From NCBI GenBank assembly GCA_046259385.1, contig JBJYWI010000006.1:25617-89616 (forward strand): a stretch of DNA of 64,000 nucleotides, read 5' to 3'. Shown piece after piece: positions 1,440-64,000 of this stretch (its first letter is position 1; every line of letters starts with the position of its first letter). Below the pieces are notes generated by a model. It was not told where the DNA came from. It made no database searches and saw nothing but the letters and a program-made list of their open reading frames with translations. Both the position numbers and the translations under genes were made by a program. Source of the DNA: Anaerolineales bacterium. Its GTDB lineage: Bacteria > Chloroflexota > Anaerolineae > Anaerolineales > UBA4823.

Positions 1440-1691
1440 ATGCTGATGAAAATTGAATTAGTCTACTGTGCTGCTTGACATTACACTGATAGAGCTGTCA
1501 GTGTGATGGCCGATGTGTTAAACGAATTCGAATTTAAAATTGACTCAATCACCCTGGTGCCCTCAGATGGGGGCCGTTTCGAATTCACTGTAAATGGCGA
1601 TTTATTGTATTCAAAACTCAGGACAAACCGCCACGTTGACAAAGGTGAGATCAACAAACTGGTGCGCAATTATCTCAAGGAGAACGCATGA
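1440..1691 (+). CDS. SelW-like / Rdx-family selenoprotein (83 aa) with in-frame UGA (Sec) at 1476..1478
   Basis: AAGGAG (1427-1432) sits 7 nt before ATG 1440. Translation is MLMKIELVYCAAUHYTDRAVSVMADVLNEFEFKIDSITLVPSDGGRFEFTVNGDLLYSKLRTNRHVDKGEINKLV.... This shows a CxxU redox motif and the PSxGGxFEVxVxGxLxxSK pattern of the Rdx fold. The ORF track reports only the part after the TGA (1503..1691). Confidence 0.8.
1483..1504 (+). promoter_or_regulatory. Candidate bacterial SECIS hairpin for the SelW-like gene
   Basis: Perfect 7-bp stem ACACTGA(1483-1489)/TCAGTGT(1498-1504) with 8-nt loop TAGAGCTG. It begins 5 nt after the UGA. Confidence 0.5.
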
Positions 1692-2751: not shown

Positions 2752-3189
2752 ATGCGAGCTTTAGTTCAACGTGTGATAAATGGTCGGGTTTCCGTCTCTG
2801 GACAAACTGTCGCAGAGATAGGACCTGGTCTGGTGATATTACTTGGGGTCGGACCGCAGGATGGTGATGAACAGATCCGTTACCTGGTTGACAAGATCGC
2901 AAATTTGAGGATTTTTGAAGATCAGGACGGCAAAATCAACCGCTCCGTACTGGATATCGGGGGCGAGGTGCTGGTTGTTTCTCAATTCACTTTATATGCC
3001 GATACCCGTAAGGGAAGACGTCCTTCATTTACCAATGCCGCGCCTCCAGAGATTGCCCGTCCAATTGTAGAGCAATTTGCTGAATTAATGGAATCCAGAG
3101 GGGTCCCAACCCGTAAAGGAGAATTTGGCGCCCATATGCTGGTCGAGATTGCAAACGATGGACCGGTGACGATCTGGCTCGAACGCTAA
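2752..3189 (+). CDS. dtd: D-aminoacyl-tRNA deacylase
   Basis: 145 aa. MRALVQRV...GPGLVILLGV...SQFTLYADTRKGRRPSF is typical Dtd. Confidence 0.9.
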   Translation: MRALVQRVINGRVSVSGQTVAEIGPGLVILLGVGPQDGDEQIRYLVDKIANLRIFEDQDGKINRSVLDIGGEVLVVSQFTLYADTRKGRRPSFTNAAPPEIARPIVEQFAELMESRGVPTRKGEFGAHMLVEIANDGPVTIWLER

Positions 3190-3980
3190 AAAGGCTGTTG
3201 GATAGCCCAGGCTGAGAAAAACTCCTCCAGCGGGCCGCCCCTCTCGCCTCTCTTTGCCGGGTACACCCGGTGCAAACTCTCCTCTTTTAATATTACTTCA
3301 GGCACTTTCACCCTTCGTCCAGCCTCGATTGAAGCGCGCCTGATGAATAAAGCATGCTGTGTTTTATGGCACAAAGCAGCCTGGATTTTATTATTCAGAA
3401 CCGACCGGACATTTATCACAATATGGGCGGGGTCAGACCTGTTCAGGATGCGTGGCTTGGGGTGTTCCGGGTAAGCGGCAGCGACAGTATATAAAAAGAA
3501 CAGGCTGTCTTGGCTGGATGCAGCCACTAAACGAGAAGCTTTATTGCAGAGCAGGTGCGCTGGGTGCCCATACTCGCCGTTTGTGCCGTGCGAGATCAAA
3601 ATATCCACATCTCTCCGCTGAATCTGTTCAGCGACCTGAGCCGCTAACCGCGCCAGGTCGGTTGTGAATGGGTAAAGTGCCTGATCCGGTCCAACAACCG
3701 GGTCTGGATATCCCAGGTTTGTCAGGCTGCTACCACCCAGATTCTCAACTGCGCATGCCACTTCTTTCTCCCGCAGGCTCCCGAGTTCCTCCGGTAGGCA
3801 GAGCGGAGGGTCGCCACTTTCGCCCCCCTCACCTCTGGTGGCAATTAAATAATGAACCTCGACCTCCGATTGAGCTAGCAGCGCCAGCGCCCCCCCGGAC
3901 AGCATGGTTTCATCATCGGGATGCGCAAAAAAAGCCAGAACTTTCACGATCGAGGATATTAACACACATCCATAATTCAT
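3186..3980 (-). CDS. PIG-L/LmbE-family N-acetylglucosaminyl deacetylase
   Basis: VLAFFAHPDDETMLSGG motif (AHPDDE) and later conserved His residues. 264 aa. Confidence 0.8.
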   Translation of the reverse strand: MNYGCVLISSIVKVLAFFAHPDDETMLSGGALALLAQSEVEVHYLIATRGEGGESGDPPLCLPEELGSLREKEVACAVENLGGSSLTNLGYPDPVVGPDQALYPFTTDLARLAAQVAEQIQRRDVDILISHGTNGEYGHPAHLLCNKASRLVAASSQDSLFFLYTVAAAYPEHPKPRILNRSDPAHIVINVRSVLNNKIQAALCHKTQHALFIRRASIEAGRRVKVPEVILKEESLHRVYPAKRGERGGPLEEFFSAWAIQQPF

Positions 3981-4048: not shown

Positions 4049-5119
4049 ATGGATAACAAATCACCATCCGGGAGAACGATACGCCTGACCAGCCTGTCAG
4101 ATTGTGCGGGTTGAGCTTCAAAGCTGAGCGCTGAGGCTCTGGCGCAGGTGCTGCGCCCGCTGAAAGAGATATACCGATCATCTGATTTTCCGGAACTGCT
4201 GGTCGGCCTGGGCGAAACAGATGACGCCGCGGTCTGGCGTCTAGAGGACGACCGCGCCCTGGTTGCAACAACGGATTTTTTTACCCCTGTCGTAGATGAC
4301 CCCTATGACTATGGTGCTATCGCGGCTGCAAACGCGCTGTCGGACGTATATGCGATGGGTGGCCAGCCCTTCCTTGCTCTAAACGTCGCTGCGCTGCCGC
4401 CGGACCTTCCAGAGGAGATCAACGCTGAAATATTAAGGGGCGGCGCCGAAAAGGCTCGCGAAGCCGGAGTTGTGGTCGCCGGAGGCCACACGATCCAGGA
4501 CAAAGAGCCAAAATACGGCTTGATTGTGCTGGGGTTTGTGGACCCGGGAAAAATCATTACAAAAATGAACGCCAGACCAGGCGACAGTCTGGTTCTGAGC
4601 AAGCCAATCGGCACAGGGACAATCACCACCGCCCTCAAGCGCGGGATCGCTGAACCCGAACATGTGGAAAAGGTTGTGAGGTGGATGAAACGCCTGAATA
4701 AAACCACCTCGGAACTTGCAAGCAGGTTTGGTATCAAGTCCGGCACCGATATCACCGGTTTCAGTCTTCTCGGTCACGCTTATGAAATGGCATCAGCCTC
4801 GGGAGTCAGGTTCCGGTTTGACTTTGACAGCATCCCATTTTTCTCCGGTGCAACTGGGTATGCAAAAGAATGGGTTTTTCCTGGAGGGTCCTCTGATAAC
4901 CGGCTTTTCTATGGTAAGCATGTGGATTTTACTCCCACAATTGATGAGTCGTCACAGATGCTGTTGTTTGACGCTCAGACCAGCGGCGGCTTGCTGCTAT
5001 CTGTTCCTCCCGACCGGTTAATAAACCTGCTCCAGGCAGGGTCAGCTGCAGCCCAGGAAATGTGGCTGGTCGGGGAGGTAATCGAAGGCGTTGGAATTGA
5101 AGTCGTCAAGATTGGATAA
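4049..5119 (+). CDS. selD: Selenide, water dikinase (selenophosphate synthetase), Sec-containing form; UGA at 4112..4114
   Basis: The ORF track begins at 4148. The upstream frame is open to ATG 4049 except for one TGA. Translation is MDNKSPSGRTIRLTSLSDCAGUASKLSAEALAQVLRPLKE..., with U-x-x-K aligning to Cys17/Lys20 of the E. coli SelD glycine-rich loop. The rest is the canonical SelD/AIR-synthase-like fold (DDAAVW...TTDFFTPVVDDPYDYGAIAAANALSDVYAMGG). Confidence 0.85.
4127..4161 (+). promoter_or_regulatory. Candidate SECIS stem-loop for selD
   Basis: Upper stem GGCGCAG(4141-4147)/CTGCGCC(4151-4157) with loop GUG. Possible lower stem AGCG(4127-4130)/CGCT(4158-4161). The apical loop lies about 34-36 nt past the UGA. 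Confidence 0.45.
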
Positions 5120-6749
5120 GTATAGTCGCGCCCCGGTTTATGGGACCCGCGGCATGGTTGCGACATCTCAACCGCTAGCGGTCGCCGCCGGTCTCGAGAT
5201 CCTGTCAGGCGGCGGGAATGCCGCTGACGCAGCAGTTGCAGCTGCGGCCGCTCTGAACGTAACCGAACCCACCTCAACCGGTCTGGGCGGCGATTGTTTT
5301 GCCCTTTTTTATCAGGCTGGCTCCGGGGCGGTTTTTGCCCTTAACGGTTCCGGTCGAGCCCCAAAAGAGCTGACAATAAACCGCCTTCGCCGGGAGGGCT
5401 TTGACCGGGAACTGCCGCCTTTTCATCCCTACACGATAACAGTCCCGGGCGCGCCAGCCGGCTGGTGCGACCTGGTTGAACGATTCGGGCGGCTCTCGAT
5501 GAAGGAGGTCCTGAACCCGGCTATCCGATTGGCTGAAAACGGTTTCCCGGTCTCGCCGTTGACCGCCCACTTCTGGAAAATTGGCTTTGAAAAGCAGCTA
5601 AAAAAAGCTCCGGGCGGGTTGGAACTGACCATCGACGGTAAACCTCCCCAGCCGGGACAGTTATTTAAGAACCCCGGTTTAGCGCGCGCATTAAAAATCC
5701 TCGCCGCCGAGGGTAAGGACAGTTTTTACAACGGGCAGATCGGGCGCGCAGTCGTGCAAGTGGCTCGGGAGGCGGGCGGTTGTTTAAATGAAGAAGACCT
5801 TGCCGCTCACCGCAGCGACTGGGTGGCACCTGTAAGCACGACCTACCGCGGGCTGCGTGTCTGGGAATGCCCCCCAAACGGGCAGGGTTTGGCTGCCCTG
5901 CTGGCACTCAACATACTGGAGGGCTATGACCTGGGAACACTCGACCCACTTTCCACACAAAGGCTGCATCTTGAGATCGAAGCAATGCGGCTCGCATTTG
6001 CGGATGCGCGCTGGTATATTGCCGATCCTGAATTTAAACCGGCTCCGGTCGAGACTCTGCTCTCAAAAGATTACGCTCAACAGAGGCGCAGATTGATCAA
6101 CAGAGAGAAAGCTACCGTCAACCAGGTAAAAGGCAGCCCATTTATCTCTTCAGATACAGTTTACTTGAGTGTTGTAGATGGAGGCGGCAACGCCTGTTCT
6201 TTCATCAACAGCAATTATATGGGTTTCGGCACCGGCATTGTGCCTGCGGGCTGGGGATTCAGCCTGCAGAACCGCGGCGCGAACTTCAGCCTTGACCCTG
6301 CCCACCCGAATGCACTCGAGCCGGGTAAACGTCCATACCATACAATCATCCCCGGTCTGGTTACAATCCCAACTGAAGGAAAAAGTGGATCCGAAAAACT
6401 TGAAGAGCTGTATGCCTGTTTCGGGGTTATGGGTGGGTTTATGCAGCCCCAGGGGCATGTACAGGTGCTTACTGGTCTGATTGATGACAACCTCAACCCA
6501 CAATCTGCGCTTGACCGCCCCCGCTTCTGCATCATCAACGGCGAAGCCGGTGGTCCGGTTGCGCTTGAGCGTGGAATTCAGGCTGAGGTAGCCCGGAAGT
6601 TGTCAGAAATGGGGCACGATATAGAACCGGATTCGGAAGGATTGTTCCACCTATACGGCCTGGGACAGATCATCCTCAGAAATCCGAAGGATGGTGTGCT
6701 TTGCGCCGGGAGCGATCCAAGGGCAGATGGCTGCGCAATGACGTATTGA
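5091..6749 (+). CDS. ggt: Gamma-glutamyltransferase family protein (no obvious signal peptide)
   Basis: GMVATSQPLAVAAGLEIL, TSTGLGGDCFALFY and the nucleophile context SSDTVYLSVVDGGGNA. The start is uncertain (TTG 5091 to TTG 5112) and overlaps the selD 3' end. Confidence 0.85.
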   Translation: MELKSSRLDKYSRAPVYGTRGMVATSQPLAVAAGLEILSGGGNAADAAVAAAAALNVTEPTSTGLGGDCFALFYQAGSGAVFALNGSGRAPKELTINRLRREGFDRELPPFHPYTITVPGAPAGWCDLVERFGRLSMKEVLNPAIRLAENGFPVSPLTAHFWKIGFEKQLKKAPGGLELTIDGKPPQPGQLFKNPGLARALKILAAEGKDSFYNGQIGRAVVQVAREAGGCLNEEDLAAHRSDWVAPVSTTYRGLRVWECPPNGQGLAALLALNILEGYDLGTLDPLSTQRLHLEIEAMRLAFADARWYIADPEFKPAPVETLLSKDYAQQRRRLINREKATVNQVKGSPFISSDTVYLSVVDGGGNACSFINSNYMGFGTGIVPAGWGFSLQNRGANFSLDPAHPNALEPGKRPYHTIIPGLVTIPTEGKSGSEKLEELYACFGVMGGFMQPQGHVQVLTGLIDDNLNPQSALDRPRFCIINGEAGGPVALERGIQAEVARKLSEMGHDIEPDSEGLFHLYGLGQIILRNPKDGVLCAGSDPRADGCAMTY

Positions 6750-21654: not shown

Positions 21655-21917
21655 ATTGATCTCACCAAACAAGCCAGGTTTCTACTGCATTCCCAGAAAG
21701 AGTGCTGCTCCTTCACTATTGAACCCTGTACTTGTTTCGCCTGCCCCAGTTGTATTCAACCCAAATACTATAAATGAGGAGCAGCGTTACATCCACTCCT
21801 GTCATTTCCGCGGCTGGTGTAAATGCCTGCTTCAGAACCCCTTGCAACCCTGCGGGTATGTTAGAGGCGAAACTTTCTTTTTACGTTCAAATTCTTCACC
21901 GGGTTTATAATTCATCC

Positions 21918-23603
21918 ATGCCCGATTCACCCATTGGCAGGAAAACTGTGGTCGGTTTGATCATTATTCTGGCTGGATTGGCGGTATTGTTGGCACTGCC
22001 CAGATTCATTGCACCGGGAAGATTCGTCACCGCCGATGAACCGAGCTGGGGGAAAAGGTCAGCAAACTTCTTCTATGCAATCTCGCATGGGGATTACGCT
22101 TCTACCTACCAGTCCGGTCATCCGGGTGTCACCACTTACTGGATTGGCTCCGCTGCCTACAAGCTCCGGTTTCCGAAGTATAGCCGGGTGGGGCAAACTT
22201 CACTCGGCGACACAAAACTGCTCGAACTTTTTAGGAGGCACGGACCGCCATTAATTCAGGTTCTGTCCACTGCCCGGACTATTCAGGCAGCCGTTATTAT
22301 TTTTACTCTGCTGGTCAGTTTTTTTTACGCCAGTTCTGTTTTTAATTTCTGGTACGCCTTACCCGGCTTTTTTATCATTGCCCTTGACCCTTTCCACATA
22401 GCCCACTCGCGCGTCTTCCATACCAACGGGTTGATCAGCAGTTTTCTATTCCTGGCTCTGCTCTCCTACCTGTTCTTCCTGAAAGAAAACCGCTGGCATG
22501 GGTTGATTGTTTCAAGTATTGCTACAAGCTTGGCTATCTTAACCGTAACACAGGGGTTGATTTTCCTTCCGGTAATTGGTCTGATCACTTTTCTGGAATT
22601 CTGGATGCACAGGAGCAGCCTGGAAGAACCTTGGCTTAGAAATGCCTCCAAAAAATATTTATTCCCATTTATTTTCTGGATCGCATTAATTGGAATAGTC
22701 TTCTTCCTCCTCTGGCCGGCCATGTGGGTTTCTCCCCTTGATTCGATAGCTTACCTGTTCAACGACACATTCAAGGCAACAGTCGGGGTTATTAATGTAA
22801 GTGAAAACGCACAAGGATCCTCATCAACAAATCCGGTGTTGTTCTACATCAAAGCTTTTCTATGGCGTAGTACCATCCTGGTCTGGATCGGTTGTAGTCT
22901 GACTTTGTTTTATATCTTACGGAAAAATCCCCCTTCCCTAGTGCGTGCACAGCGAAAAAATGTAATCTATTTGATTCTTTTTGTGATTATCTTCACCTTG
23001 GTAATGAGTTTGGGCGCAAAAAAATACGACCGCTACCTCCTCCCTGTTTTTCCGCCATTGGATCTAATTGCCGGAATCGGCTGGATTGTCGCTGCAGATT
23101 GGTTGAATACTCGATTTTTTAACCTGCAGTCGAATTTAATGCGTTACGGTACCATCGCGATTCTGCTGTTTGTACAGCTCATGGTGATCATCCCGCACCA
23201 CCCGTATTACCTGACCTATTTCAATCCAATTTTGGGAAGTCCTGAAGAAGTGATCAGGGACAACATGGATACTGGCTGGGGTGAAGGTCTCAGCGAGGCT
23301 GCTATTTACCTACGCCAGAAACCAGAAATTCAGGACAACAGGGTGATCGCCTGGTTCCCGCTGGCCTTTAACTGGTACAGCGCCTCGCTGGGCTTTACCG
23401 CCGACCCCATATATCTGGATAATGAAATCAGTGATTGGCGCCTCAAGGATTATTTATCCGCAGATTATGCGGTGATTTATATCAATCAGTGGCAGCGCAA
23501 TTATCCAAAAAAGCTGATGGATCACCTGGAAAATCTCTCCCCGGAACACACCGTCAGTATCAACGGTATAGATTATGTCAGAATTTACAACCTGAATAAA
23601 TAA
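21918..23603 (+). CDS. GT39/ArnT-like (PMT_2) integral-membrane glycosyltransferase
   Basis: Many TM helices with a DEPSW motif in the first loop. ATG 21918 is preferred over the ORF-track start 21774. Confidence 0.65.
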   Translation: MPDSPIGRKTVVGLIIILAGLAVLLALPRFIAPGRFVTADEPSWGKRSANFFYAISHGDYASTYQSGHPGVTTYWIGSAAYKLRFPKYSRVGQTSLGDTKLLELFRRHGPPLIQVLSTARTIQAAVIIFTLLVSFFYASSVFNFWYALPGFFIIALDPFHIAHSRVFHTNGLISSFLFLALLSYLFFLKENRWHGLIVSSIATSLAILTVTQGLIFLPVIGLITFLEFWMHRSSLEEPWLRNASKKYLFPFIFWIALIGIVFFLLWPAMWVSPLDSIAYLFNDTFKATVGVINVSENAQGSSSTNPVLFYIKAFLWRSTILVWIGCSLTLFYILRKNPPSLVRAQRKNVIYLILFVIIFTLVMSLGAKKYDRYLLPVFPPLDLIAGIGWIVAADWLNTRFFNLQSNLMRYGTIAILLFVQLMVIIPHHPYYLTYFNPILGSPEEVIRDNMDTGWGEGLSEAAIYLRQKPEIQDNRVIAWFPLAFNWYSASLGFTADPIYLDNEISDWRLKDYLSADYAVIYINQWQRNYPKKLMDHLENLSPEHTVSINGIDYVRIYNLNK

Positions 23604-54600: not shown

Positions 54601-56979
54601 ATGACTCTGCCTCCTGCTTCGTCTGACCGGACGCTACACATCTATTTATCGCTGGCGCAGTACCCTATTTTACAGACCCAAATCCGAGCACGGATGCGGC
54701 GTGAATTATTCGAACGCGGCGTTCTCTCACCAGAGGATTTTGAAGCCGAGGTGAAGCAAAAGGCGATCCATTCCCAGAGGTTGGAGGTGCTCAATGATCC
54801 TATGGCAGATGAACCTGCCGATATCTGGGAATTGCGCCTTTCACGGGTGCGCGAGCACCTGACTGATTTCTATTTCGCTTACAACCTGCCCTTTGATCTT
54901 TTTAACGAACTTGTCCGCCAGACGTTGGCTGAGCGCGGTGCGATCGCTGAAGACCTGCAGGTTTCATTCAATCCTGAGCTGGCTCCCCAAAACATGCTTT
55001 TTGAGCAGGCGGTGGCGATTGAGAATATACCGCCTGCGGATCGCAAACATCTTCAAGCCCGCCTGCAGGAAATTAAGGTCGTGCTGATTCGGACAATGAT
55101 CAGCGACCAGCTCGCATACGTAAAGATTGCTAAAGACTGGTTCACAATCGATGACCTGAATGAAATCCGCACGCACAAGATCGGGCACGGCAAAATTGGC
55201 GGAAAAGCAGCCGGAATGCTTTTAGCTTACCGCATCCTCAACGAGGTTGGAGATGAAACCATCAGGGACGCCATATCAATACCTGAATCTTATTTTATCG
55301 GCGCAGACCTGCTCTATAACTTCATGGCTCTAAATAATTTGATGCACTGGGCTGATCAGAAATATAAAACTGAAGGGGAAATCCGGTCGGATTTTCCTCA
55401 ATTGAAGGCTGAATTTTCAGCAGGACAGCTTCCTCCGGAGACCCGCGAAGCCTTGATGATTATGCTTGTGAGTATCGGGCGTAATCCGATTATCGTCCGT
55501 TCTTCCAGTCTGCTGGAGGATAACTTTGGGACTTCCTTTGCCGGAAAATATGATAGCTATTTCTGTCCCAACCAGGGCACACTGGATGAGAACCTGGAAG
55601 ACCTGACCATGGCGATTAAGAAAATTTATGCCAGCAGCCTGAACCCGAATGCCCTGCTTTACCGCCAGACCAGAGACCTGATTGATTATGACGAGCGCAT
55701 GGCGGTGCTAATTCAGACCGTGCAGGGCGACATTGCTGGGCGTTATTTTTTGCCCCATGCAGCTGGTGTTGCCTTCAGTCGGAACCTGTACCGCTGGTCG
55801 CCTCAAATCCGCCGGGAAGATGGTTTCCTGCGCCTGGTTTGGGGGTTGGGGACCCGGGCGGTTGATCGGGTGGGGAACGACTACCCGCGCCTGGTCGCAC
55901 TCAGCCACCCCCACCTGCACCCAGAGGTGTCATCCAGAGATACCCGCCGCTATTCCCAACGCTTTGTTGACCTGATTGATCTCGAAGACAATAAATTCAA
56001 ATCGCTGCCGATTGACGAAGCTATTGACCCGGGCGATCAGATTACACGCTACATCGCCCAGGTTGATCAGGACGGATATCTCGCGCCTTTGCGGATAACA
56101 ATGCCGGATGAGCTTGAGAAGAAACTGGTAATTACCTTCGATGGCCTTTTCCGCCGGACCGATCTCGCGATACTTTTTACCCGGATACTGCAGACTCTCG
56201 AAAAACATTATTGTTCACCAGTAGATACGGAGTTCACAGTACATATTGAAGATCCCGCCTCTGCAAGGCCGGAGGTAAGAATTGCCCTGCTCCAGTGCCG
56301 CCCGCTCAGTTACCTCCAGGAAATTAACGCTCGCATTCCGGCAAATTTGAAGGAGAAGCATATCATTTTCAGGACCAAACGCATGGCGCCCCAGGGGCGT
56401 GTTAGCGCGATCCGGTATATCTTGTATGTATCCCCGGAAAAATACTTCTCACTGGAGACACTGGCAGCCCGAGGTGAAGTTGGCCGCACTATCGGGCGCC
56501 TGAACGCTGCTCTTGCAAAAGAGACTTTTATTTGCATTGGTCCCGGCAGGTGGGGTTCGATTAATCCTGACTTGGGCGTCCCGGTAAGTTACGCTGACAT
56601 CTACAACACCCGGGCGCTGGTCGAAATCACCGGCCCCAGTATAGGCCCCGCTCCGGAAGCATCCTTTGGAACCCATTTCTTTCAGGACCTTGTCGAATCG
56701 AATATATACCCTCTGGCGGTGTACCTCAATGACAACGATGCCCTGTTCAGAAAAGCCTTTTTCGATAATGCTCCCAACTCAATGGAACAGTTTATCCCTG
56801 AATCAAAAACAATTGGAGGCTGCCTTACTCTGGTCGATATAACATCTTATCGTCCAGGTTATAAGCTGGAACTTGTAATGGACGACGAGCAGACTCTGAC
56901 TGTCGCCTTCCTGAAAAAAGACGGCTCCGAATTTGAATATCCGGATAGCTACCGTCCTAATATACTTGCCCAAGGTTAA
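54601..56979 (+). CDS. PEP/pyruvate-binding (PPDK_N, ATP-grasp) domain protein with unrecognised N- and C-terminal regions
   Basis: IGGKAAGMLLAYRIL and IVRSSSLLEDNFGTSFAGKYDSYF. No swivel phospho-His motif was recognised by eye. Confidence 0.7.
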   Translation: MTLPPASSDRTLHIYLSLAQYPILQTQIRARMRRELFERGVLSPEDFEAEVKQKAIHSQRLEVLNDPMADEPADIWELRLSRVREHLTDFYFAYNLPFDLFNELVRQTLAERGAIAEDLQVSFNPELAPQNMLFEQAVAIENIPPADRKHLQARLQEIKVVLIRTMISDQLAYVKIAKDWFTIDDLNEIRTHKIGHGKIGGKAAGMLLAYRILNEVGDETIRDAISIPESYFIGADLLYNFMALNNLMHWADQKYKTEGEIRSDFPQLKAEFSAGQLPPETREALMIMLVSIGRNPIIVRSSSLLEDNFGTSFAGKYDSYFCPNQGTLDENLEDLTMAIKKIYASSLNPNALLYRQTRDLIDYDERMAVLIQTVQGDIAGRYFLPHAAGVAFSRNLYRWSPQIRREDGFLRLVWGLGTRAVDRVGNDYPRLVALSHPHLHPEVSSRDTRRYSQRFVDLIDLEDNKFKSLPIDEAIDPGDQITRYIAQVDQDGYLAPLRITMPDELEKKLVITFDGLFRRTDLAILFTRILQTLEKHYCSPVDTEFTVHIEDPASARPEVRIALLQCRPLSYLQEINARIPANLKEKHIIFRTKRMAPQGRVSAIRYILYVSPEKYFSLETLAARGEVGRTIGRLNAALAKETFICIGPGRWGSINPDLGVPVSYADIYNTRALVEITGPSIGPAPEASFGTHFFQDLVESNIYPLAVYLNDNDALFRKAFFDNAPNSMEQFIPESKTIGGCLTLVDITSYRPGYKLELVMDDEQTLTVAFLKKDGSEFEYPDSYRPNILAQG

Positions 56980-56987
56980 TCGCTCAA

Positions 56988-57653
56988 ATGGATTCGCATA
57001 TTTCCAAAAAATTTATTGCTGTTGCTGGCAATATTGGGGTCGGAAAATCATCCCTCGTCAACCTGCTCTCCGACCGCCTAGTATGGCAGCCATTTTACGA
57101 ACCGGTCTCAGAGAATCCTTACCTGCAGGATTTCTACAAGGATATGCGCACATGGGCATTTCACTCCCAAATTTACTTCCTGACCAAGCGACTGCGCACA
57201 CATCGGAAACTGATTGATTATCCCGGTCCCGCTATCCAGGACCGGACTGTCTATGAGGATGCCGAGATTTTTGCGCGCAATCTCTTCCGAAACGGGCATA
57301 TCAACAAGCGCGATTACAATGCCTACTGCGAGCTGTACCAGGTGCTGACAGAGTTCCTGCCGCCCCCAGACCTGGTCATTTACCTGCGAGCCACAGTGAG
57401 CACACTCATGGAGCGCATACGCCGGCGCGGGCGTGATTACGAACAGAAAATTGACCCGGAATACCTGGAGCAGCTGAATAAGCTGTATGAAGAATGGATC
57501 GCTGGATTTAATTTGTGCCCGGTATTGACAGTGCCGGTAGATCAGCTAAACTACGTCTCTAACCCGCGCCACCTCGATCTGATAGAGCGGAAAGTGCTTG
57601 AGAAGCTGATGGGAAAAGAGGAGGTGGTCTTTGACCGGGCGGAGGTCGAATGA
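56988..57653 (+). CDS. Deoxynucleoside kinase
   Basis: IAVAGNIGVGKSSL P-loop, FYEPVSENPYLQDFY and the DRTVYED motif. Confidence 0.85.
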   Translation: MDSHISKKFIAVAGNIGVGKSSLVNLLSDRLVWQPFYEPVSENPYLQDFYKDMRTWAFHSQIYFLTKRLRTHRKLIDYPGPAIQDRTVYEDAEIFARNLFRNGHINKRDYNAYCELYQVLTEFLPPPDLVIYLRATVSTLMERIRRRGRDYEQKIDPEYLEQLNKLYEEWIAGFNLCPVLTVPVDQLNYVSNPRHLDLIERKVLEKLMGKEEVVFDRAEVE

Positions 57654-57706
57654 CGCGGGGTGTAATTAATCACGCATCGTACGAACTTGCTCCGAATATT
57701 GTTACT

Positions 57707-58081
57707 TCAAAAAGCCGCCAGGGCTTCCCCCCTGTCTTCAAAGATATCGAATAGGCTATCAAAACTGGCGATATTCAACACCCCCCGGATTTGTGGCTTT
57801 GGATTAAGAAGTTTCAGGTGTTCCGACTTTCCGACTCCACCAGCCTCCCCACCCCCTTCTTCGTCTTCCAGCATCTTTGATATACCCAGTAGCGCTCGTA
57901 ATCCAGCGCTGGTGAGCGAAACCACTTCGCTCAAATCGATAAGCAGGTTGCGCATTCCCCCTTCATAATACTCCCTGGCTTCATCTTCCAGTTCGCCTAC
58001 CGTTCCAAGGTTGATCATACCGCTGACTGTAAAAACGGTAACAGTTACCCGGGCGCTCTCCTGTGTTACGCTGATTTTCAT
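57707..58081 (-). CDS. STAS-domain protein (anti-sigma-factor antagonist-like)
   Basis: LLIDLSEVVSLTSAGLRALL pattern, 124 aa. Confidence 0.75.
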   Translation of the reverse strand: MKISVTQESARVTVTVFTVSGMINLGTVGELEDEAREYYEGGMRNLLIDLSEVVSLTSAGLRALLGISKMLEDEEGGGEAGGVGKSEHLKLLNPKPQIRGVLNIASFDSLFDIFEDRGEALAAF

Positions 58082-58319
58082 CTATTTCCTCACTTTGGTA
58101 ATGGGCTGAAATTTATCAATAAATTATACACATAAAGCCTGGATTGAACGGCACTGCTCAAGGTGGTCGCTTCAGACTTTGCACATGCGCAGCCGTTTAA
58201 GTTACGGGTTGAACGATTTTTATCCCGTTTGGATAAAAGGCAACCTTTATGAGGGATTTCCCCGCAAGGATAGTTACAGGCTTTCTTGTCCCAACATCAC
58301 AGAGATTGCGCGGGGGAAT

Positions 58320-59915
58320 TTAATTCCCCTTTGTGCAAATTGTACGGCTCTCGGGGATGATCTGAAAATCATACGGTTGGTTATAAGTCGAAAAAAGACT
58401 GTTGTCTTCCAGGATTTCGAAATCACCGTCAAAATAAAGGTTAAAAATTGTTCTAAAATTGTTGACCGGAGATATGCTGTTATAAATCCGGTCATTTCCT
58501 TCACCGGGGAGATAATATGCGTTAAGGATATTCACACGCGTATCAGGCTGAGATTTGACAGCGCCGTGGTCGGCTTGCAGGATGATAATCGGTTCAGGGT
58601 CAGATTGACGGATAATTTCCTGAAGAACTGGCAGGATTTTACGATTAATAAAACTGACCTGATCTTTATATCCCTGATAATATGGTTTGTCATAATCCAC
58701 AAAATCTCCATCTGGTTCGAACACAAAAGGACCATGCGGGATGACCATATGGGTAAATACAAATTTCGGTCCATCTACTTCAGGAAGGTTTTCCAGCTGT
58801 TCAAGAACATACAGTATTCGTTCATAGTGGATTCTATTTGGGTTATTTAGATCTGGTTGCAGGATCTCAGGCAGCAAAGCCGCACCGTCAATAACAATCC
58901 GGGCGAGCGAATTGCGAAGTACAAGCAGCTCGAATTCGTTGATACCGCTGAACAATCTGTCCGCTATTAATCCTCCTTTTCGTGGAGACAGATAGATATC
59001 AGCGTCTTCCCACTGGGTGATATTGAATCCCGTCTCAAATGCAACTATCTGGTATCCCATGCTCTCTAATATGTTCCGCACCCTATTGTCCTGGATAAGC
59101 TCCTTGATGCCTGCCCGGCTGGTATTGCCAGGTTTATAGTTATCTCCCAGCGCCTCGAGGTAGTTCATGTTTAGACTTGAAGATAAGGAAAGGCTGGTCT
59201 GGGCGTAATTGCTGCGGGAACAGGTTCCAATAAAGAAACCCGAATTTTCAAGATCCATAAGGAACTGGCTGTTATCAAATTCAAACTCACCTAAGAGTAT
59301 GTCATCGCGTGCATAGGCATCAAGGATAATCAAGTAGATATCAGGCAACTGTCCATTCGAGTGCTCCTGAGCAGGCACTGTATCTTCATATTGTTCCTCA
59401 ATGCCACTTTTGGAGATATAACTGCTGAATTCAAACCTGCCTATTTGGATTAGAGGGATGATTAAAGCCGTTACTGCGATGATATTTAACAATCCATTTA
59501 GAGATTCGGTGGCAACTTTTTTCTTCAGGATAATGAATAAACCTGCAGCAAACAATACCACCCATATCAAAAGCAGGACCCGGTGTTTACCCAGAAGAGC
59601 GCCCAATTCCTGGGAGGATTTTAGAAGATTGTAAAAATGCCCGTAGGTGAAAAAAAGGATAATCGCCATGCTGGTAATCAGGGCGGCTTTATCACGATCC
59701 TGTACTAACATGACAAGAACATAATATAAAAAAACACTGATAAATACCGAGACAATAAGCGCTCGAAAAGCTGTATCGAACCTGATCTCTTCAACATTGC
59801 TGCCGAAAAGGGCAAGTACCGGGTAAGCAGCGAAAAGAAAAGGGTAAAAGTGTTTATCCAGTAACCTTTTCAAATTTGCGGCTCTCCAAGAGGAAGATTG
59901 TTCGAAGCGTGCCAT
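58320..59915 (-). CDS. Membrane-anchored sulfatase-like (alkaline-phosphatase superfamily) hydrolase/transferase
   Basis: About 5 N-terminal TM helices, DIYLIILDAYARDD metal-ligand context, and ILQADHG near the C-terminus. Confidence 0.65.
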   Translation of the reverse strand: MARFEQSSSWRAANLKRLLDKHFYPFLFAAYPVLALFGSNVEEIRFDTAFRALIVSVFISVFLYYVLVMLVQDRDKAALITSMAIILFFTYGHFYNLLKSSQELGALLGKHRVLLLIWVVLFAAGLFIILKKKVATESLNGLLNIIAVTALIIPLIQIGRFEFSSYISKSGIEEQYEDTVPAQEHSNGQLPDIYLIILDAYARDDILLGEFEFDNSQFLMDLENSGFFIGTCSRSNYAQTSLSLSSSLNMNYLEALGDNYKPGNTSRAGIKELIQDNRVRNILESMGYQIVAFETGFNITQWEDADIYLSPRKGGLIADRLFSGINEFELLVLRNSLARIVIDGAALLPEILQPDLNNPNRIHYERILYVLEQLENLPEVDGPKFVFTHMVIPHGPFVFEPDGDFVDYDKPYYQGYKDQVSFINRKILPVLQEIIRQSDPEPIIILQADHGAVKSQPDTRVNILNAYYLPGEGNDRIYNSISPVNNFRTIFNLYFDGDFEILEDNSLFSTYNQPYDFQIIPESRTICTKGN

Positions 59916-61257
59916 TTATCTCAAATTTCTGGTGGATTTGAAAGAAAACCGAAAACGCACTTTCAAAATTAGCTAGGTCGTAATCAGGGAAGACATCTTC
60001 TCGTGATACAAGAAGTTTTTGAACCTGAGAATCTTCTTTCGGCACAAATTCAATCACAAGCCAGCGGCCTAGATGTTGAAAGAATTCAGCAATTTTTATC
60101 AACGGTACGTTATTCGAAATCGCCAGATGGTGGATTAATGCCAGAGCAAATACAGCTTCTGCGGGAGCACGCCGTTTCAAGCTTTCCCTTTCACTGTTGT
60201 CCCAGCCCATATCTGGACTTGGGTTTGTGAGATCAAGCAGCAATGGAAGCAGGTTGGTCTCATTTTCTTCCAGGCAATTCTGATAATTAAGTTCAACCGC
60301 TGCAGGTTCATTGTCTATCGAAATTGTAGGGATTCCCATGCGGCTTGCTATTCGGCTGTATCGACCAAGATTGGCTCCCAAATCCCACATACTTTCAGGC
60401 GATACTCTGTCAAGAATCGTGGCGATAATATCTTCTTTGCTTTTTTCGCTCTGCTGAGAATAATTTGATGTTTCGTAGTAATCTGTCCAGCCGCCCTTGG
60501 ATGGCGACCAGCGCAGTCGGTTAACCGCTCTCTCCAGACTATCGATTAACCCCTGCATTCCCGTTCTGGACATCTTCCGGGAAGAATCAATGGATCTGCC
60601 TGCAAATCGCTTTTCACTCGAAGCGTGCAGCATGATATGAATCTGCGCAGGAAAGGAAAGCCTGGCTCGAAACGGCAATAACCTGGCTGCGAGATCCAGC
60701 GGAACGCCGTCTATGTAAACTCTAAAAAGCTGGCTCAAGCGGACATCTTTGTATGCCATTAGGTATAGCGGCGCCAGGAAATGTTTGCAGAACTGCCGGT
60801 ATGCTATCCACGGTTGGCCCTCTTTGTATATCTGGAAAGAGAGTGAGTCAATTAGAACAGGTTTGCCTTTATGGAATTGAATATTAAATGCGCTGCTATC
60901 CTTCAGGACCATATCGTGTTCAAGTGCTTTGGTTTGAATTTTTAATGTCGCCAGAGCAGCGTCTTTCAGCTGGCTGAAGCACCATTCATATGGATATGAG
61001 ATAAAATCAATTGTTTCTGGTTGTATGACTTTGTAGCATTCATCAGGTAGATTCTCCCACTTTGGAACTTCACGGTGAGGTATGAGCAGTTTTTCAGAGA
61101 CCAGCTCATCATATAGGCCAGTGTTTATTAGCCTTTCGAAATCTTCCTTATAGATTGAATTTACCTGTCGATATAGGACTCCCCCTTCAACAAAGAGATA
61201 TCCGCTCGGGTCTCGAAACGAAGCCCCCAGATACTGGTGGAAATTCGAGGAATCCAT
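59854..61257 (-). CDS. Class I SAM-dependent methyltransferase with a large N-terminal domain
   Basis: MWDLGANLGRYS (motif I-like) in the C-terminal half. The N-terminal domain is unrecognised. Confidence 0.6.
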   Translation of the reverse strand: MDSSNFHQYLGASFRDPSGYLFVEGGVLYRQVNSIYKEDFERLINTGLYDELVSEKLLIPHREVPKWENLPDECYKVIQPETIDFISYPYEWCFSQLKDAALATLKIQTKALEHDMVLKDSSAFNIQFHKGKPVLIDSLSFQIYKEGQPWIAYRQFCKHFLAPLYLMAYKDVRLSQLFRVYIDGVPLDLAARLLPFRARLSFPAQIHIMLHASSEKRFAGRSIDSSRKMSRTGMQGLIDSLERAVNRLRWSPSKGGWTDYYETSNYSQQSEKSKEDIIATILDRVSPESMWDLGANLGRYSRIASRMGIPTISIDNEPAAVELNYQNCLEENETNLLPLLLDLTNPSPDMGWDNSERESLKRRAPAEAVFALALIHHLAISNNVPLIKIAEFFQHLGRWLVIEFVPKEDSQVQKLLVSREDVFPDYDLANFESAFSVFFQIHQKFEINGTLRTIFLLESRKFEKVTG

Positions 61258-61262
61258 TACGC

Positions 61263-61478
61263 TCAGTCTTTGTTGTTATCCCTTGTGAAGAGATTACGAA
61301 AGAATGAGATTATTTTGTTCCAGTATCTGCGCATCAAAAATAAACCGCCCAACAGCGATGCAACAATCAATTGTAGAATAAAACTGCCAGAACCAGGGTC
61401 AAGATAAGCATGTTCCCGAAGCGCTGGCATAAGCCCTCTTACAGTCGAGACGATTATGTATTCGTAAAGAAATTGCAT
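61263..61478 (-). CDS. Small hydrophobic protein
   Basis: YLDPGSGSFILQLIVASLLGGLFL followed by a basic tail. Only 5 nt separate its stop from the methyltransferase start. Confidence 0.4.
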   Translation of the reverse strand: MQFLYEYIIVSTVRGLMPALREHAYLDPGSGSFILQLIVASLLGGLFLMRRYWNKIISFFRNLFTRDNNKD

Positions 61479-61718
61479 CTCTAAACTTTTTTTAACTCCT
61501 TGTCCTATTGTGGGGCTGCGGTTCAGCCAAGATATCTAGTAACTAGATTATATACCCAAGTCTAGATCCCAAAAATTTTCGAGGCCTTTTCGTATACAAA
61601 TTAAATTCATTTGCGTTCAATAGATAACAATTAAAATTTTGTTTTCTTAATATTGCAACAACCATAAATACAGGTCATGGCTATTTGTGAACACAGATAA
61701 TTTAATTTTACACCTGAT

Positions 61719-62081
61719 ATAGACTCTTTACCCTCTACCGGTCACGCTGCCGGAGAAGATTTCAGAACAGCCGGGTTCCACGTACACCAGAGTCTCAATG
61801 ATATCGAAGGCATCACCTGCCTGATGCCGGAAGCGACCTTTTACGCCTTTCCTAATATCTTGCAGGTGGGGATGAGTTCCTGGGATTTAGCAAAATATCT
61901 AGTGCGCGAGCACAGGGTGGCGCTGATCCCAGGCAGCATCTTTGGAGAAAACGGGCAAGGCTACCTGTGCCTCTCCTTCGCGGCCAGCGAGGCTGATCTG
62001 AGAGAAGGCCTCGCCCGCATCAAAGAAGGTGTGGACACATTACAAGGACTGCGCGATGATCCGAAAGGCTCTCTGTGTTAA
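61719..62081 (+). pseudogene. 3' remnant of a class I/II (aspartate-type) aminotransferase gene
   Basis: The frame is open only from 61719. Translation ...FRTAGFHVHQSLNDIEGITCLMPEATFYAFPNI...ALIPGSIFGENGQGYLCLSFAAS...EGLARIKE matches only the last ~110 residues of such enzymes. The upstream DNA is AT-rich and non-coding. Confidence 0.65.
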
Positions 62082-62118
62082 TCGCCAGTTTTTATCTGGG
62101 GGAATCTTTGTTGTTGAC

Positions 62119-63489
62119 TCACAGTTCTGAAATCACAAATCTAAACTTGCCTGAAGGATCTCTGTTAATTTGGTCAACGATATTTATTTCAATTGTGGAT
62201 CCTTCCAGATGCTCTTTGAAAACCCCTTGAATAGTACTGTTCTGTTCCATATCATATATTTCATAGTCCGGAATAATGTTCAACTCAAATAGATCGGGTT
62301 GTTTTTGGATCACCTGGTACTGTCTTATTCCCTTGATATGTTTGATCAAATTTTGAAAGTAATGATTGTATATAATCCTTCCACTCGCTAATTTGATCAC
62401 ATCGAGTTTTCGCCCTGCTAAACCCTCCAGAACTCCAAATCCCAGACCCAGAGGACAATCGTGGTCATGGTGAACGCACTTTGCGATGTCATTTAAGTTG
62501 TAACGGATTATTGGATAGCTCCAATTATCAAGATTGGTTACAACAACCTCCCCATACTCCTCATTAGGGTCAGTTTTAACAACCTCGACATAAACTGCGT
62601 CATCCATTGTGTGCATAACACCACACGGATGGCTGTGCGCAATCGCGCCCATTTCTATGCTTCCATATTCATCTGCCACCGAGCACCCGAATGCCTCAGA
62701 AATTATTTTCTCTTGCTTTTTCTCCAGAACTTCGCCGCTGGTCAAGACCAATTTCAGGTTAGCTTCCTTTCCATCAATACCGTTATCTTGCAGGTAATAT
62801 GCAAAATGTGTGTATGCGGATGGAAACCCGAATAGATATTTAGGAGAGAAGTTTAGCAATGCGCTCCATTGTTCGTGCATCAATTCCATAGTTGTGGTAA
62901 ATGCGGAAAATTGCTTTCGATTCATAAGCAAATTCCGGATTGGGTCAAATATTTTCTCGTGATAAAACTTCCGCCAATCCCGCTCGAATGTATATCCCGT
63001 ATTGGACAGGCGGATTTCGCGATCGCCCAGCTGGATTCCCCACCAGCTCAATGAACGAATGCGGCTCACATTCGCCCTCAACGCAGCCCGCTGGCTCACC
63101 ATAATTTTTAACGGCGTTCCCGTCGAACCGCTGGTCGTGGCAGGGTAAACGGATGAATCAGGACTTGTTGAATAAAAAGATTCATTATTCTGTCTCAGGA
63201 GCTCCTTCGTCAGGATTGGGATCAGCTTGAAATCTTCTGGAGTTTTTATATCCCCCGGCTGGACCCCGAACTCGCGTAATGTCTTCTGGTAATACGGAAC
63301 TGTATTGTAAGCATGTTGCAACAGCGCTCGTAATTTGTTGAATTGTACTTCCCCTAGATCCATGAAACTTAAAAACTGGTTTTTTTTTGCCGCTTTCATT
63401 GCGGGAGAATAATCTCTGCCCTGCAATCTCTGCGCCAGCGGGTAAATCCAATTCCTTAGAATCGGAGCGTAATGATCTTTCCGGGGCAT
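62119..63489 (-). CDS. Phenylacetate-CoA ligase / F390-synthetase-like adenylate-forming enzyme (CapK-like)
   Basis: ATTSGSTGTPLKIMVS AMP-binding motif, 456 aa. Confidence 0.8.
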   Translation of the reverse strand: MPRKDHYAPILRNWIYPLAQRLQGRDYSPAMKAAKKNQFLSFMDLGEVQFNKLRALLQHAYNTVPYYQKTLREFGVQPGDIKTPEDFKLIPILTKELLRQNNESFYSTSPDSSVYPATTSGSTGTPLKIMVSQRAALRANVSRIRSLSWWGIQLGDREIRLSNTGYTFERDWRKFYHEKIFDPIRNLLMNRKQFSAFTTTMELMHEQWSALLNFSPKYLFGFPSAYTHFAYYLQDNGIDGKEANLKLVLTSGEVLEKKQEKIISEAFGCSVADEYGSIEMGAIAHSHPCGVMHTMDDAVYVEVVKTDPNEEYGEVVVTNLDNWSYPIIRYNLNDIAKCVHHDHDCPLGLGFGVLEGLAGRKLDVIKLASGRIIYNHYFQNLIKHIKGIRQYQVIQKQPDLFELNIIPDYEIYDMEQNSTIQGVFKEHLEGSTIEINIVDQINRDPSGKFRFVISEL

Positions 63490-63624
63490 AGGTTTTTAGA
63501 ATGGAACAGCGCTCTTCTTTTAGATCCGGAATTTTTTCCTACTGCGTTTATAGATGCAGCTTTTGATCAGGACCGAATAGAATCATCAATAATCACTTGC
63601 CATGGTGGAACTGGTTTATTGCAG

Positions 63625-64000
63625 TTAGATCTTGCAATCTGACCTTATATAGTTAAATTTACCGGATCCCTCAGTCGGGATTGATTCAACATGGGTTATT
63701 GTGACATCAATTGGGCCCAGCAAGGTTTTCATCCGGTCTTTAATAAATAATTCCTGCTGCTCTCCGTAAACTTCGGGGTTGATTACAACCAGGATTTCAA
63801 AACGGTCCGGCTCCCTCTGGTTCACCTGATATTGAACCAAACCATCAACAAGTTTCATTAATGTAGTGAAATAAGTGCCGTGGATAATTCGTCCATTGGA
63901 GAGCTGTATTTGATCAAAGGTGCGCCCAACGATTCTATCAAACATAGCAAATCCTAATCCTAGCTCACAGCCAGCATGTTCGTGAATAGGTGGTGCCAGG
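63625..64000 (-). CDS. Second PaaK/F390-synthetase-like enzyme, C-terminal part (runs off the window)
   Basis: The frame stays open to the window edge (LAPPIHEHAGCELGLGFAMFDRIVGR...). It is colinear with the C-terminus of 62119..63489 (HHDHDCPLGLGFGVLEGLAGR...SGKFRFV vs SGKFNYI). Confidence 0.7.
   Translation of the reverse strand, partial: LAPPIHEHAGCELGLGFAMFDRIVGRTFDQIQLSNGRIIHGTYFTTLMKLVDGLVQYQVNQREPDRFEILVVINPEVYGEQQELFIKDRMKTLLGPIDVTITHVESIPTEGSGKFNYIRSDCKI

Follow-up and report, generated by a model that had tools for sequence, protein, structure and literature searches.

A SelW-like gene with an in-frame UGA, very probably a selenocysteine codon, in an Anaerolineales genome

Small selenoproteins of the SelW-like type, which carry a redox motif of the form CxxU (U, selenocysteine), have been known in bacteria since 2004-2005, and no other selenoprotein family was as abundant in the Sargasso Sea data, where they accounted for 48 genes (PMC1088965, PMC1794560). 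Their hosts include Geobacter sulfurreducens, Desulfotalea psychrophila, Desulfotomaculum reducens and Symbiobacterium thermophilum, among others; few homologs with cysteine in place of selenocysteine (Sec) occur in organisms that use Sec, and the role of the family has been taken no further than that of a "candidate redox protein" (PMC1088965, PMC1794560). Chloroflexi have already been listed among the phyla with selenoproteins (PMC1794560). Here we describe a gene of this type at positions 1440-1691 of a 64,000-nucleotide stretch of DNA from an Anaerolineales bacterium (GenBank assembly GCA_046259385.1, contig JBJYWI010000006.1, positions 25,617 to 89,616; the whole stretch is called the window below, and all positions are given on its forward (+) strand unless a feature is marked (-)). 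The gene has 83 codons plus a stop, and it very probably encodes a SelW-like (Rdx family) selenoprotein that has been cut short by the calling of open reading frames (ORFs), the insertion of Sec itself being predicted from sequence comparison.

The bacterial SelW-like proteins described so far share a single domain of ~80 residues with an N-terminal CxxU motif, a UGA followed by a small hairpin that has G in the apical loop, a scarcity or absence of Cys-form orthologs within the same Sec-using clade, and scores above the family cutoffs. The window gene shows every testable defining feature of this family. It differs from the described members in belonging to an Anaerolineae subfamily, characterized by the motif YC[A/Q/T]xU[H/N/R]YT and an invariant (V/I)PSDGGR(F/Y)E block, and in its genomic setting, a conserved cluster with trpS and dtd that, in some members of the class, has a T-box leader for tRNA-Trp in front of it. 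Specific to the window gene are this subfamily, a very clean covarying selenocysteine insertion sequence (SECIS) and the T-box/trpS/dtd neighbourhood. In eukaryotic SelW genes the SECIS lies in the 3' untranslated region (PMC1088965), whereas in the window gene the signal would lie within the coding sequence, just past the UGA.

The read-through frame and its conserved UGA

As read from ATG 1440, the frame begins MLMKIELVYCAA, stop, HYTDRAVSVMADVL, and in full it runs MLMKIELVYCAA, stop, HYTDRAVSVMADVLNEFEFKIDSITLVPSDGGRFEFTVNGDLLYSKLRTNRHVDKGEINKLVRNYLKENA, stop, with the TGA at 1476-1478 as the sole internal stop and the TGA at 1689-1691 as its end. If the internal UGA is decoded as Sec, the product is MLMKIELVYCAAUHYTDRAVSVMADVLNEFEFKIDSITLVPSDGGRFEFTVNGDLLYSKLRTNRHVDKGEINKLVRNYLKENA, in which the UGA specifies residue 13 of the motif C10-A-A-U13. 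A Shine-Dalgarno sequence, AAGGAG, can be read at 1427-1432, 7 nucleotides (nt) before the ATG. The mechanical ORF list of the window contains for this gene only the frame 1503-1691, with a GTG start and 62 residues. That the list holds this frame alone, while the same frame is open back to ATG 1440 behind an AAGGAG apart from one TGA, had been claimed in the first-pass annotation of this DNA, and reading the sequence confirmed it in full. The second UGA of the gene serves as its stop and overlaps the start of trpS (ATGA), so that one mRNA would carry UGA in two meanings, Sec at the first and termination at the second (1689-1691), with 213 nt between the two.

Profile searches were performed with the product in which U was replaced by C. 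The Rdx family model PF10262 was matched at 61.1 bits (cutoff 22.6; E=1.2e-16), with residues 4-77 falling on model positions 1-74 of 74, and TIGR02174 (CXXU_selWTH) was matched at 47.6 bits, above its cutoff of 34.2. The narrow, Campylobacter-type equivalog NF041051 (SelTWH_Campy) was missed, with 62.9 bits at a cutoff of 88, and by these scores the product is a member of the broader subfamily only, outside that equivalog. Among solved structures, the best sequence matches were Atu0228 (2fa8, E=2e-8), VcR75 (2p0g), SAV_2001 (3dex) and mouse SelW (2npb, E=3.5e-4). In sequence alignments, C10-A-A-U13 lines up with the C-x-x-C of 2fa8, 2p0g and 3dex, the UGA taking the place of the second Cys. 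The first-pass annotation had assigned the gene to the SelW/Rdx family and the TGA to the second redox position of a CxxC/CxxU motif; both assignments hold, as the full PF10262 model is covered and the solved relatives carry Cys opposite the TGA.

An AlphaFold model was made for P0005, a homolog 69% identical to the window product, from an input alignment of 21 full-length relatives. The model, with a predicted local distance difference test score (pLDDT) of 94.3, consists of strand beta1 (residues 3-10), a loop bearing the motif, helix alpha1 (16-33), three further strands and a C-terminal helix. When it was compared by Foldseek with the PDB, the first 21 matches were all bacterial SelW-related chains, with template modelling (TM) scores of 0.82-0.90 and root mean square deviations of 1.1-1.8 A, and the next were MIEN1, mouse SelW (TM 0.70) and thioredoxins. 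On this model, the window product is predicted to have the thioredoxin-like fold of SelW type, with CxxU in the loop between beta1 and alpha1, a feature that it would share with mammalian SelW (2npb) and the rest of the Rdx family (SelW, SelT, SelH, Rdx12, MIEN1). The P0005 model also has the same fold as the Cys-form Rdx structures 2fa8 (Atu0228), 2p0g (V. cholerae VcR75) and 3dex (SAV_2001), in which the motif is in the same place, and as 2obk (P. fluorescens), 2oka (P. aeruginosa) and 2ojl (B. parapertussis), with TM scores of 0.86-0.90 and deviations of 1.2-1.8 A for this set. These solved proteins differ from the window product in having Cys at its Sec site, and are 20-28% identical to it.

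Relatives of the gene were sought by scanning one genome per species. A relative is encoded by 409 genomes, and the best 80 were examined at the DNA level (loci L008-L087); all belong to the class Anaerolineae of the Chloroflexota, with the cultured Thermanaerothrix daxensis GNS-1, T. solaris and Levilinea saccharolytica KIBI-1 among them. Together with one further locus, L007, they make up 81 homologous loci, and the window brings the alignment to 82 sequences, ungapped around the TGA. The nearest relative of the window locus, at 92% identity, is L008, from a metagenome-assembled genome (MAG), MFD09779.bin.1.115, in which it lies on contig CAWBYY010000011.1. A TGA stands at the same codon in 81 of the 81 loci, which span 55-92% protein identity, and is invariant in the 82-sequence alignment. 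In these loci it is flanked by a conserved Y-C-[A/Q/T/G]-x-U-[H/N/R/L]-Y motif and preceded by a start codon 9-12 codons upstream, and the start codon, the Shine-Dalgarno sequence and the YCxxU motif keep a fixed spacing. As judged from this comparison, the combination of a family match upon read-through and a TGA at the identical codon in every locus is far beyond chance.

The same alignment bears on the simplest competing account, in which the real gene is the 62-residue ORF from GTG 1503 and TGA 1476 does nothing but end a meaningless upstream frame. Products of 61-62 residues are indeed what ORF finders predict and what public records (NCBI GenBank MAGs, JGI, ENA) contain, and the truncated 62-residue product still matches PF10262. 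Such a product, however, would be without strand beta1 and without the CxxU motif that define the fold, whereas the Pfam model aligns from residue 4 and the start codon, Shine-Dalgarno sequence and YCxxU stay at a fixed distance. Moreover, across the 81 loci the 12 codons before the TGA and the eight after it vary mostly at the third position, just as the remainder of the gene does: mean pairwise variability at codon positions 1/2/3 was 0.255/0.154/0.615 in the nine codons before the TGA, 0.195/0.093/0.476 in the eight codons from the TGA to GTG 1503, and 0.282/0.144/0.599 in the remainder. To judge from these values, the region dropped by gene callers evolves as coding sequence. The first-pass annotation had asked whether homologs begin at 1503 with nothing conserved upstream; in the 81 loci the upstream codons are conserved. 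We therefore regard the short ORF as a scarcely credible alternative that conservation has effectively refuted.

Conservation also speaks to whether the locus could be a decaying pseudogene, derived from a former Cys-form Rdx gene by a change of TGT or TGC to TGA. The conversion of a Cys codon to TGA needs a single-base change, but here all 81 loci have the same TGA, the sequence on either side of it is under purifying selection, the frame is intact, and the Shine-Dalgarno sequence and the position in the operon are conserved. On this comparative evidence, the pseudogene is refuted by class-wide conservation, and we give it next to no chance.

Relatives in the protein databases are of two kinds, proteins of 59-62 residues that start just past the TGA, and proteins of ~80 residues with Trp at the Sec site. 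The full-length forms that bear Trp are hits P0005-P0051, with "W" at residue 13. This W at the UGA site could mean that the UGA is read as a standard amino acid, either as Trp or Gly under genetic code 4 or 25, or as Trp or Cys by near-cognate suppression; UGA is naturally leaky to tRNA-Trp, and the SelW-like gene sits in what appears to be a tRNA-Trp-regulated operon (see below). One Trp form was checked, P0018 (locus L007, 64-120): its codon in the DNA is TGA, and the stored protein is not obtained under code 11, which identifies its W as an artefact of code-4 gene calling on a short contig. Further, TGA terminates 10 of the 40 long ORFs of the window, and the products of these match family models over their full length; the organism therefore uses neither code 4 nor code 25. 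In solved homologs the UGA position is occupied by Cys, not Trp. Decoding as a standard amino acid is thus highly improbable, and two additional points stand against it, a covarying hairpin after the UGA and a second UGA at the catalytic Cys/Sec position of selD, both of which are presented in the next section.

Hairpins after the UGA and the Sec-form selD

A small hairpin just past the UGA, with a G in the apical loop, is the signature of the bacterial SECIS (PMC1088965). In the window, a conserved SECIS-like hairpin, GCUGUCA-GUG-UGAUGGC, occupies 17 nt at 1494-1510; it has 7 base pairs (bp), including two G-U, and a G-U-N triloop, and its base lies 15 nt past the UGA (alignment columns 25-41). 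Across the 82 sequences, 90.4% of cells are standard pairs; shifting the 3' side of the stem by 1-3 columns lowers this to 17-55%. Compensatory changes are seen at five of the seven pairs, one pair varying between C-G, U-A and G-C and another between G-C and A-U, and the covariation score was reached by none of 500 shuffles. The covariation is reflected in the protein, 5'-strand Val/Ile/Ala codons changing together with 3'-strand Thr/Met/Ala codons. The inner five pairs were also predicted by RNAalifold, unprompted. At least six of the seven pairs together with the G-U-N triloop are present in 69 of the 82 sequences (GUC 38, GUU 20, GUG 10, GUA 1), while in 11 the hairpin is shifted by 4 nt and has the loop CGUGA or a close variant, and in two it is imperfect. 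The Sec-recoding hairpin thus appears, from the alignment, to have moved register within the class. In its shifted form (alignment A2 columns 21-37) it stands 4 nt nearer the UGA, with a 6-bp stem CCGGGC/GCCUGG and the loop CGUGA, and the sub-clade that carries it comprises L029, L046, L055, L060, L063, L068, L069, L073, L081, L082 and L086.

The minimum-free-energy structure of the region is a different one, a lineage-specific 13-bp hairpin at 1479-1508 in which 1479-1491 pairs with 1496-1508 around a GAGC loop; its core is the 7-bp inverted repeat ACACTGA/TCAGTGT (1483-1489 and 1498-1504). The 30 nt alone fold at -15.9 kcal/mol (z=-4.7), and in the 40-nt context 1476-1515 the value is -17.5 kcal/mol (z=-4.6), with 0 of 200 shuffles as good in either case. 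Among the 82 sequences this hairpin was found in the window and L008 only. The first-pass annotation had placed the SECIS in the 7-bp repeat at 1483-1504: the repeat exists and its fold is stable, but it is confined to these two sequences, and the conserved, covarying element is the one at 1494-1510. As a conserved SECIS, the hairpin 1483-1504 was rejected, being absent from 80 of the 82 sequences. The conserved 17-nt hairpin and the 13-bp stem are mutually exclusive, and the class-wide hairpin at 1494-1510 is most likely the operative SECIS candidate in the window.

In the E. coli fdhF SECIS, a minimal upper stem-loop of 17 nt is reportedly bound by SelB, according to work of the Bock laboratory. 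The window element shares with SECIS of the fdhF type a 17-nt hairpin at a short fixed distance past the UGA and a G-U in a small apical loop; it differs in its spacing (15 nt vs. 11 nt), in having no bulged U and in its triloop. The class consensus, GCCGUCA-GUC-UGGCGGC, resembles GGUUGCAGGUCUGCACC, which we take to be the fdhF sequence, in the core CAG-GUC-UG.

A second UGA at a Sec position is present in selD (selenide, water dikinase; 4049-5119), 2.36 kb downstream of the SelW-like stop. From ATG 4049 the frame reads SDCAG-U-ASK across a UGA at 4112-4114, its product scores 344.6 bits with TIGR00476, and U22 falls opposite Cys17 of E. coli SelD (3u0o) and opposite the Sec-derived Cys of the Aquifex enzyme (2yye/2zod). 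Translation, TIGR00476 and the alignment to E. coli and Aquifex SelD hence bear out the presence of a Sec-form selD ~2.4 kb away, which the first-pass annotation had noted. A SECIS-like hairpin, GGCGCAG-GUG-CUGCGCC, is predicted at 4141-4157 and shares its GUG loop with the hairpin of the SelW-like gene, so that the window contains two independent UGAs at known Sec positions with a GUG-loop hairpin after each. ORF and gene callers cut selD, too, to a 323-residue product from GTG 4148. In a crude scan of the window for TGA near Cys, Ser or Thr in long read-through frames, 86 hits were obtained, mostly meaningless, and only those at 1476 and 4112 were credible. In 23 of the 80 relatives, selD was present in the flanking sequence retrieved, which extended up to 6 kb on either side of the SelW-like gene. 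A selenocysteine elongation factor has been reported in Anaerolinea thermophila, and for some single-cell genomes of Anaerolineales there are reports of Sec-specific translation factors and of formate dehydrogenases of the Sec type (PMC4959059). These reports, the two UGAs with their hairpins and the presence of selD are indirect evidence for a Sec machinery in this genome.

Several observations weigh against the reading of 1440-1691 as a Sec-encoding gene. Coding constraints could account for part of the apparent covariation of the hairpin. In the window itself the conserved hairpin is weak (-5.2 kcal/mol, with its two G-U pairs) and competes with the stabler 13-bp stem (-15.9 to -17.5 kcal/mol). 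With regard to the decoding machinery, a Pfam scan of ten size-picked ORFs of the window, all of which proved to be other proteins, found no selA or selB, and the gene lists for 10 kb past each window end (from a 106-kb ENA contig, k141_683222, that covers the same locus) are likewise without selA, selB and tRNA-Sec. By ARAGORN, the 64-kb window has no tRNA gene, and none of 60 related loci yielded a tRNA-Sec. Finally, the T-box leader upstream of the gene, described below, has a score of 66.4 bits, lower than the Rfam gathering score of 93. Taking these points together with the family models matched, the Cys aligned at the UGA, the TGA in 81 loci, the fold of the homolog, the nearby selD and the use of TGA as an ordinary stop, we interpret the data to be consistent with a Sec-encoding SelW-like gene and consider this very probable; such a gene was the central claim of the first-pass annotation, which is borne out by these lines of evidence.

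In the mechanism that we propose, translation would start from AUG 1440, served by the AAGGAG. At the UGA (1476-1478), SelB with Sec-tRNA(Sec) would be recruited by a small hairpin in the downstream coding sequence, and Sec would be inserted in place of termination; the hairpin used by SelB would most likely be the one at 1494-1510, whose apical loop is G-U-N. On the 3' side of the A site, about a dozen nt of mRNA lie within the ribosome. When the UGA is in the A site, the 5' strand of the 13-bp stem (1479-1491) would be inside the mRNA channel and unpaired, and its being held there would free 1496-1508, so that the conserved hairpin 1494-1510 could fold. In the E. coli fdhF SECIS, the lower helix must melt. 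The resulting product would be a small thiol-dependent oxidoreductase, whose C10-x-x-U13 would most probably cycle between the selenol/thiol and the selenenylsulfide.

The T-box leader, trpS and dtd

Upstream of the SelW-like gene is a gap of 440 nt, in which a T-box leader is located; its stem I to stem III region (1076-1350) matches RF00230 (E=4.2e-14) along the whole model, positions 1-219 of 219. When the whole window was searched at Rfam gathering thresholds, no family matched, and the T-box surfaced at the E-value threshold only; with its score below the gathering score, the leader is therefore missed by standard annotation. The specifier loop, GAA-UGG-A, lies at 1163-1169 and presents the Trp codon UGG (1166-1168), with trpS downstream. 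A motif reading and a terminator prediction place the T-box sequence GUGAAGCUGGCU and an intrinsic terminator at 1355-1400. The UGGC bulge of GUGAAGCUGGCU (1362-1365) is complementary to the tRNA 3' end GCCA, and the terminator (1373-1392) consists of CCCGTCG (1373-1379) and CGACGGG (1386-1392), followed by a T-run with the tail TTTATTCTTT; antiterminator pairing presumably takes place within the leader. With the T-boxes of RF00230, for example those of Firmicutes trpS, the window leader has in common the stem I AGAGA and GAA-codon-A, a UGG specifier that matches trpS, the UGGC bulge and the terminator. It differs from them in that a selenoprotein gene would stand between leader and synthetase gene and in its score below the gathering threshold.

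The motif GTG[AG][AG][AG]CTGGCT was present in 31 of 32 aligned leaders, and GAA-UGG was found by a strict pattern in 27 of the 32. As detected with an nhmmer leader profile, the SelW-like gene is immediately preceded by a full-length T-box in 31 of the 80 genomes. All of these 31 full-length leaders are at loci with trpS, whereas none was found at the 14 loci without trpS. The Rfam T-box model, applied to sampled relatives, gave the same picture: four of eight loci with trpS were matched (52-64 bits) and none of four without. Since the leader is present only at loci with trpS, it would belong to trpS, with the SelW-like gene being transcribed under it.

The synthetase gene itself, trpS (tryptophan--tRNA ligase, 1688-2698), is identified by TIGR00233 (300 bits, cutoff 176.75) and PF00579. 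The two genes overlap in ATGA (1688-1691), which contains the stop of the SelW-like gene and the start of trpS, and trpS has an AAGGAG of its own at 1677-1682. Next comes dtd (D-aminoacyl-tRNA deacylase, 2752-3189; TIGR00256, 171.9 bits, cutoff 101.5). In 66 of the 80 genomes trpS is the next gene after the SelW-like gene, and in 67 of the 80 dtd is downstream of it, following immediately where trpS is absent. The order SelW-like gene, trpS, dtd is repeated on two more distant contigs (L092 and L093). In the lineage of the window, the SelW-like gene would thus be the first cistron of an operon led by a putative tRNA-Trp T-box, and transcription of the SelW-like/trpS/dtd operon would be gated by this tRNA-Trp-sensing leader and its terminator. 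We also considered the 12-codon stretch before the UGA as a leader peptide for trpS attenuation and rejected the idea, as the stretch runs on in frame into the Rdx domain and supplies the N-terminal strand of the fold.

In a literature search, no title or abstract on a T-box/SelW-like/trpS/dtd neighbourhood was found. It is conceivable, though we think it unlikely, that the linkage to trpS and dtd is functional and not just a gene order passed down by descent, with the SelW-like protein acting on Trp-tRNA or in aminoacylation quality control, or with the UGA coupling Sec/Trp decoding to the charging of tRNA-Trp. An example of the former would be redox upkeep of TrpRS or Dtd; in the latter case, the UGA is one that tRNA-Trp can misread.

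Two other genes adjoin the selenium genes. One encodes a PIG-L family deacetylase (3186-3980, (-)), whose likeness to BshB/MshB is weak (71 bits vs. cutoffs of at least 195), and the other a gamma-glutamyltransferase (5091-6749, +). With the likeness of the former to bacillithiol/mycothiol deacetylases, the two could point to a low-molecular-weight-thiol theme. Elsewhere in the window, ORF 21774-23603 (609 residues) is without a Pfam match. The stretch 56000-64000 has a G+C content of 0.44-0.47 vs. ~0.50-0.54 in the rest of the window and contains two overlapping ORFs on the minus strand, 58320-59915 (531 residues) and 59854-61257 (467 residues), with no Pfam family on record.

Meaning for annotation and for the SelW-like family

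The analysis corrects an annotation and reveals no new mechanism or system. The error that it corrects is a systematic one: in every sampled public source (NCBI MAG records, JGI, ENA and Logan) the gene is represented either by a fragment without the redox centre or by a product with Trp. The 82 aligned sequences provide an unusually clean, covariation-supported SECIS from a non-model phylum, which could be used to train selenoprotein finders.

Together with the Sec-form selD, the SelW-like gene would mark the organism, and apparently most of the class Anaerolineae, as users of selenocysteine. The neighbourhood of Trp T-box, SelW-like gene, trpS and dtd represents a small new lead on the role of SelW-like proteins, and a functional linkage, if true, would be the first handle on the role of this long-enigmatic bacterial family.

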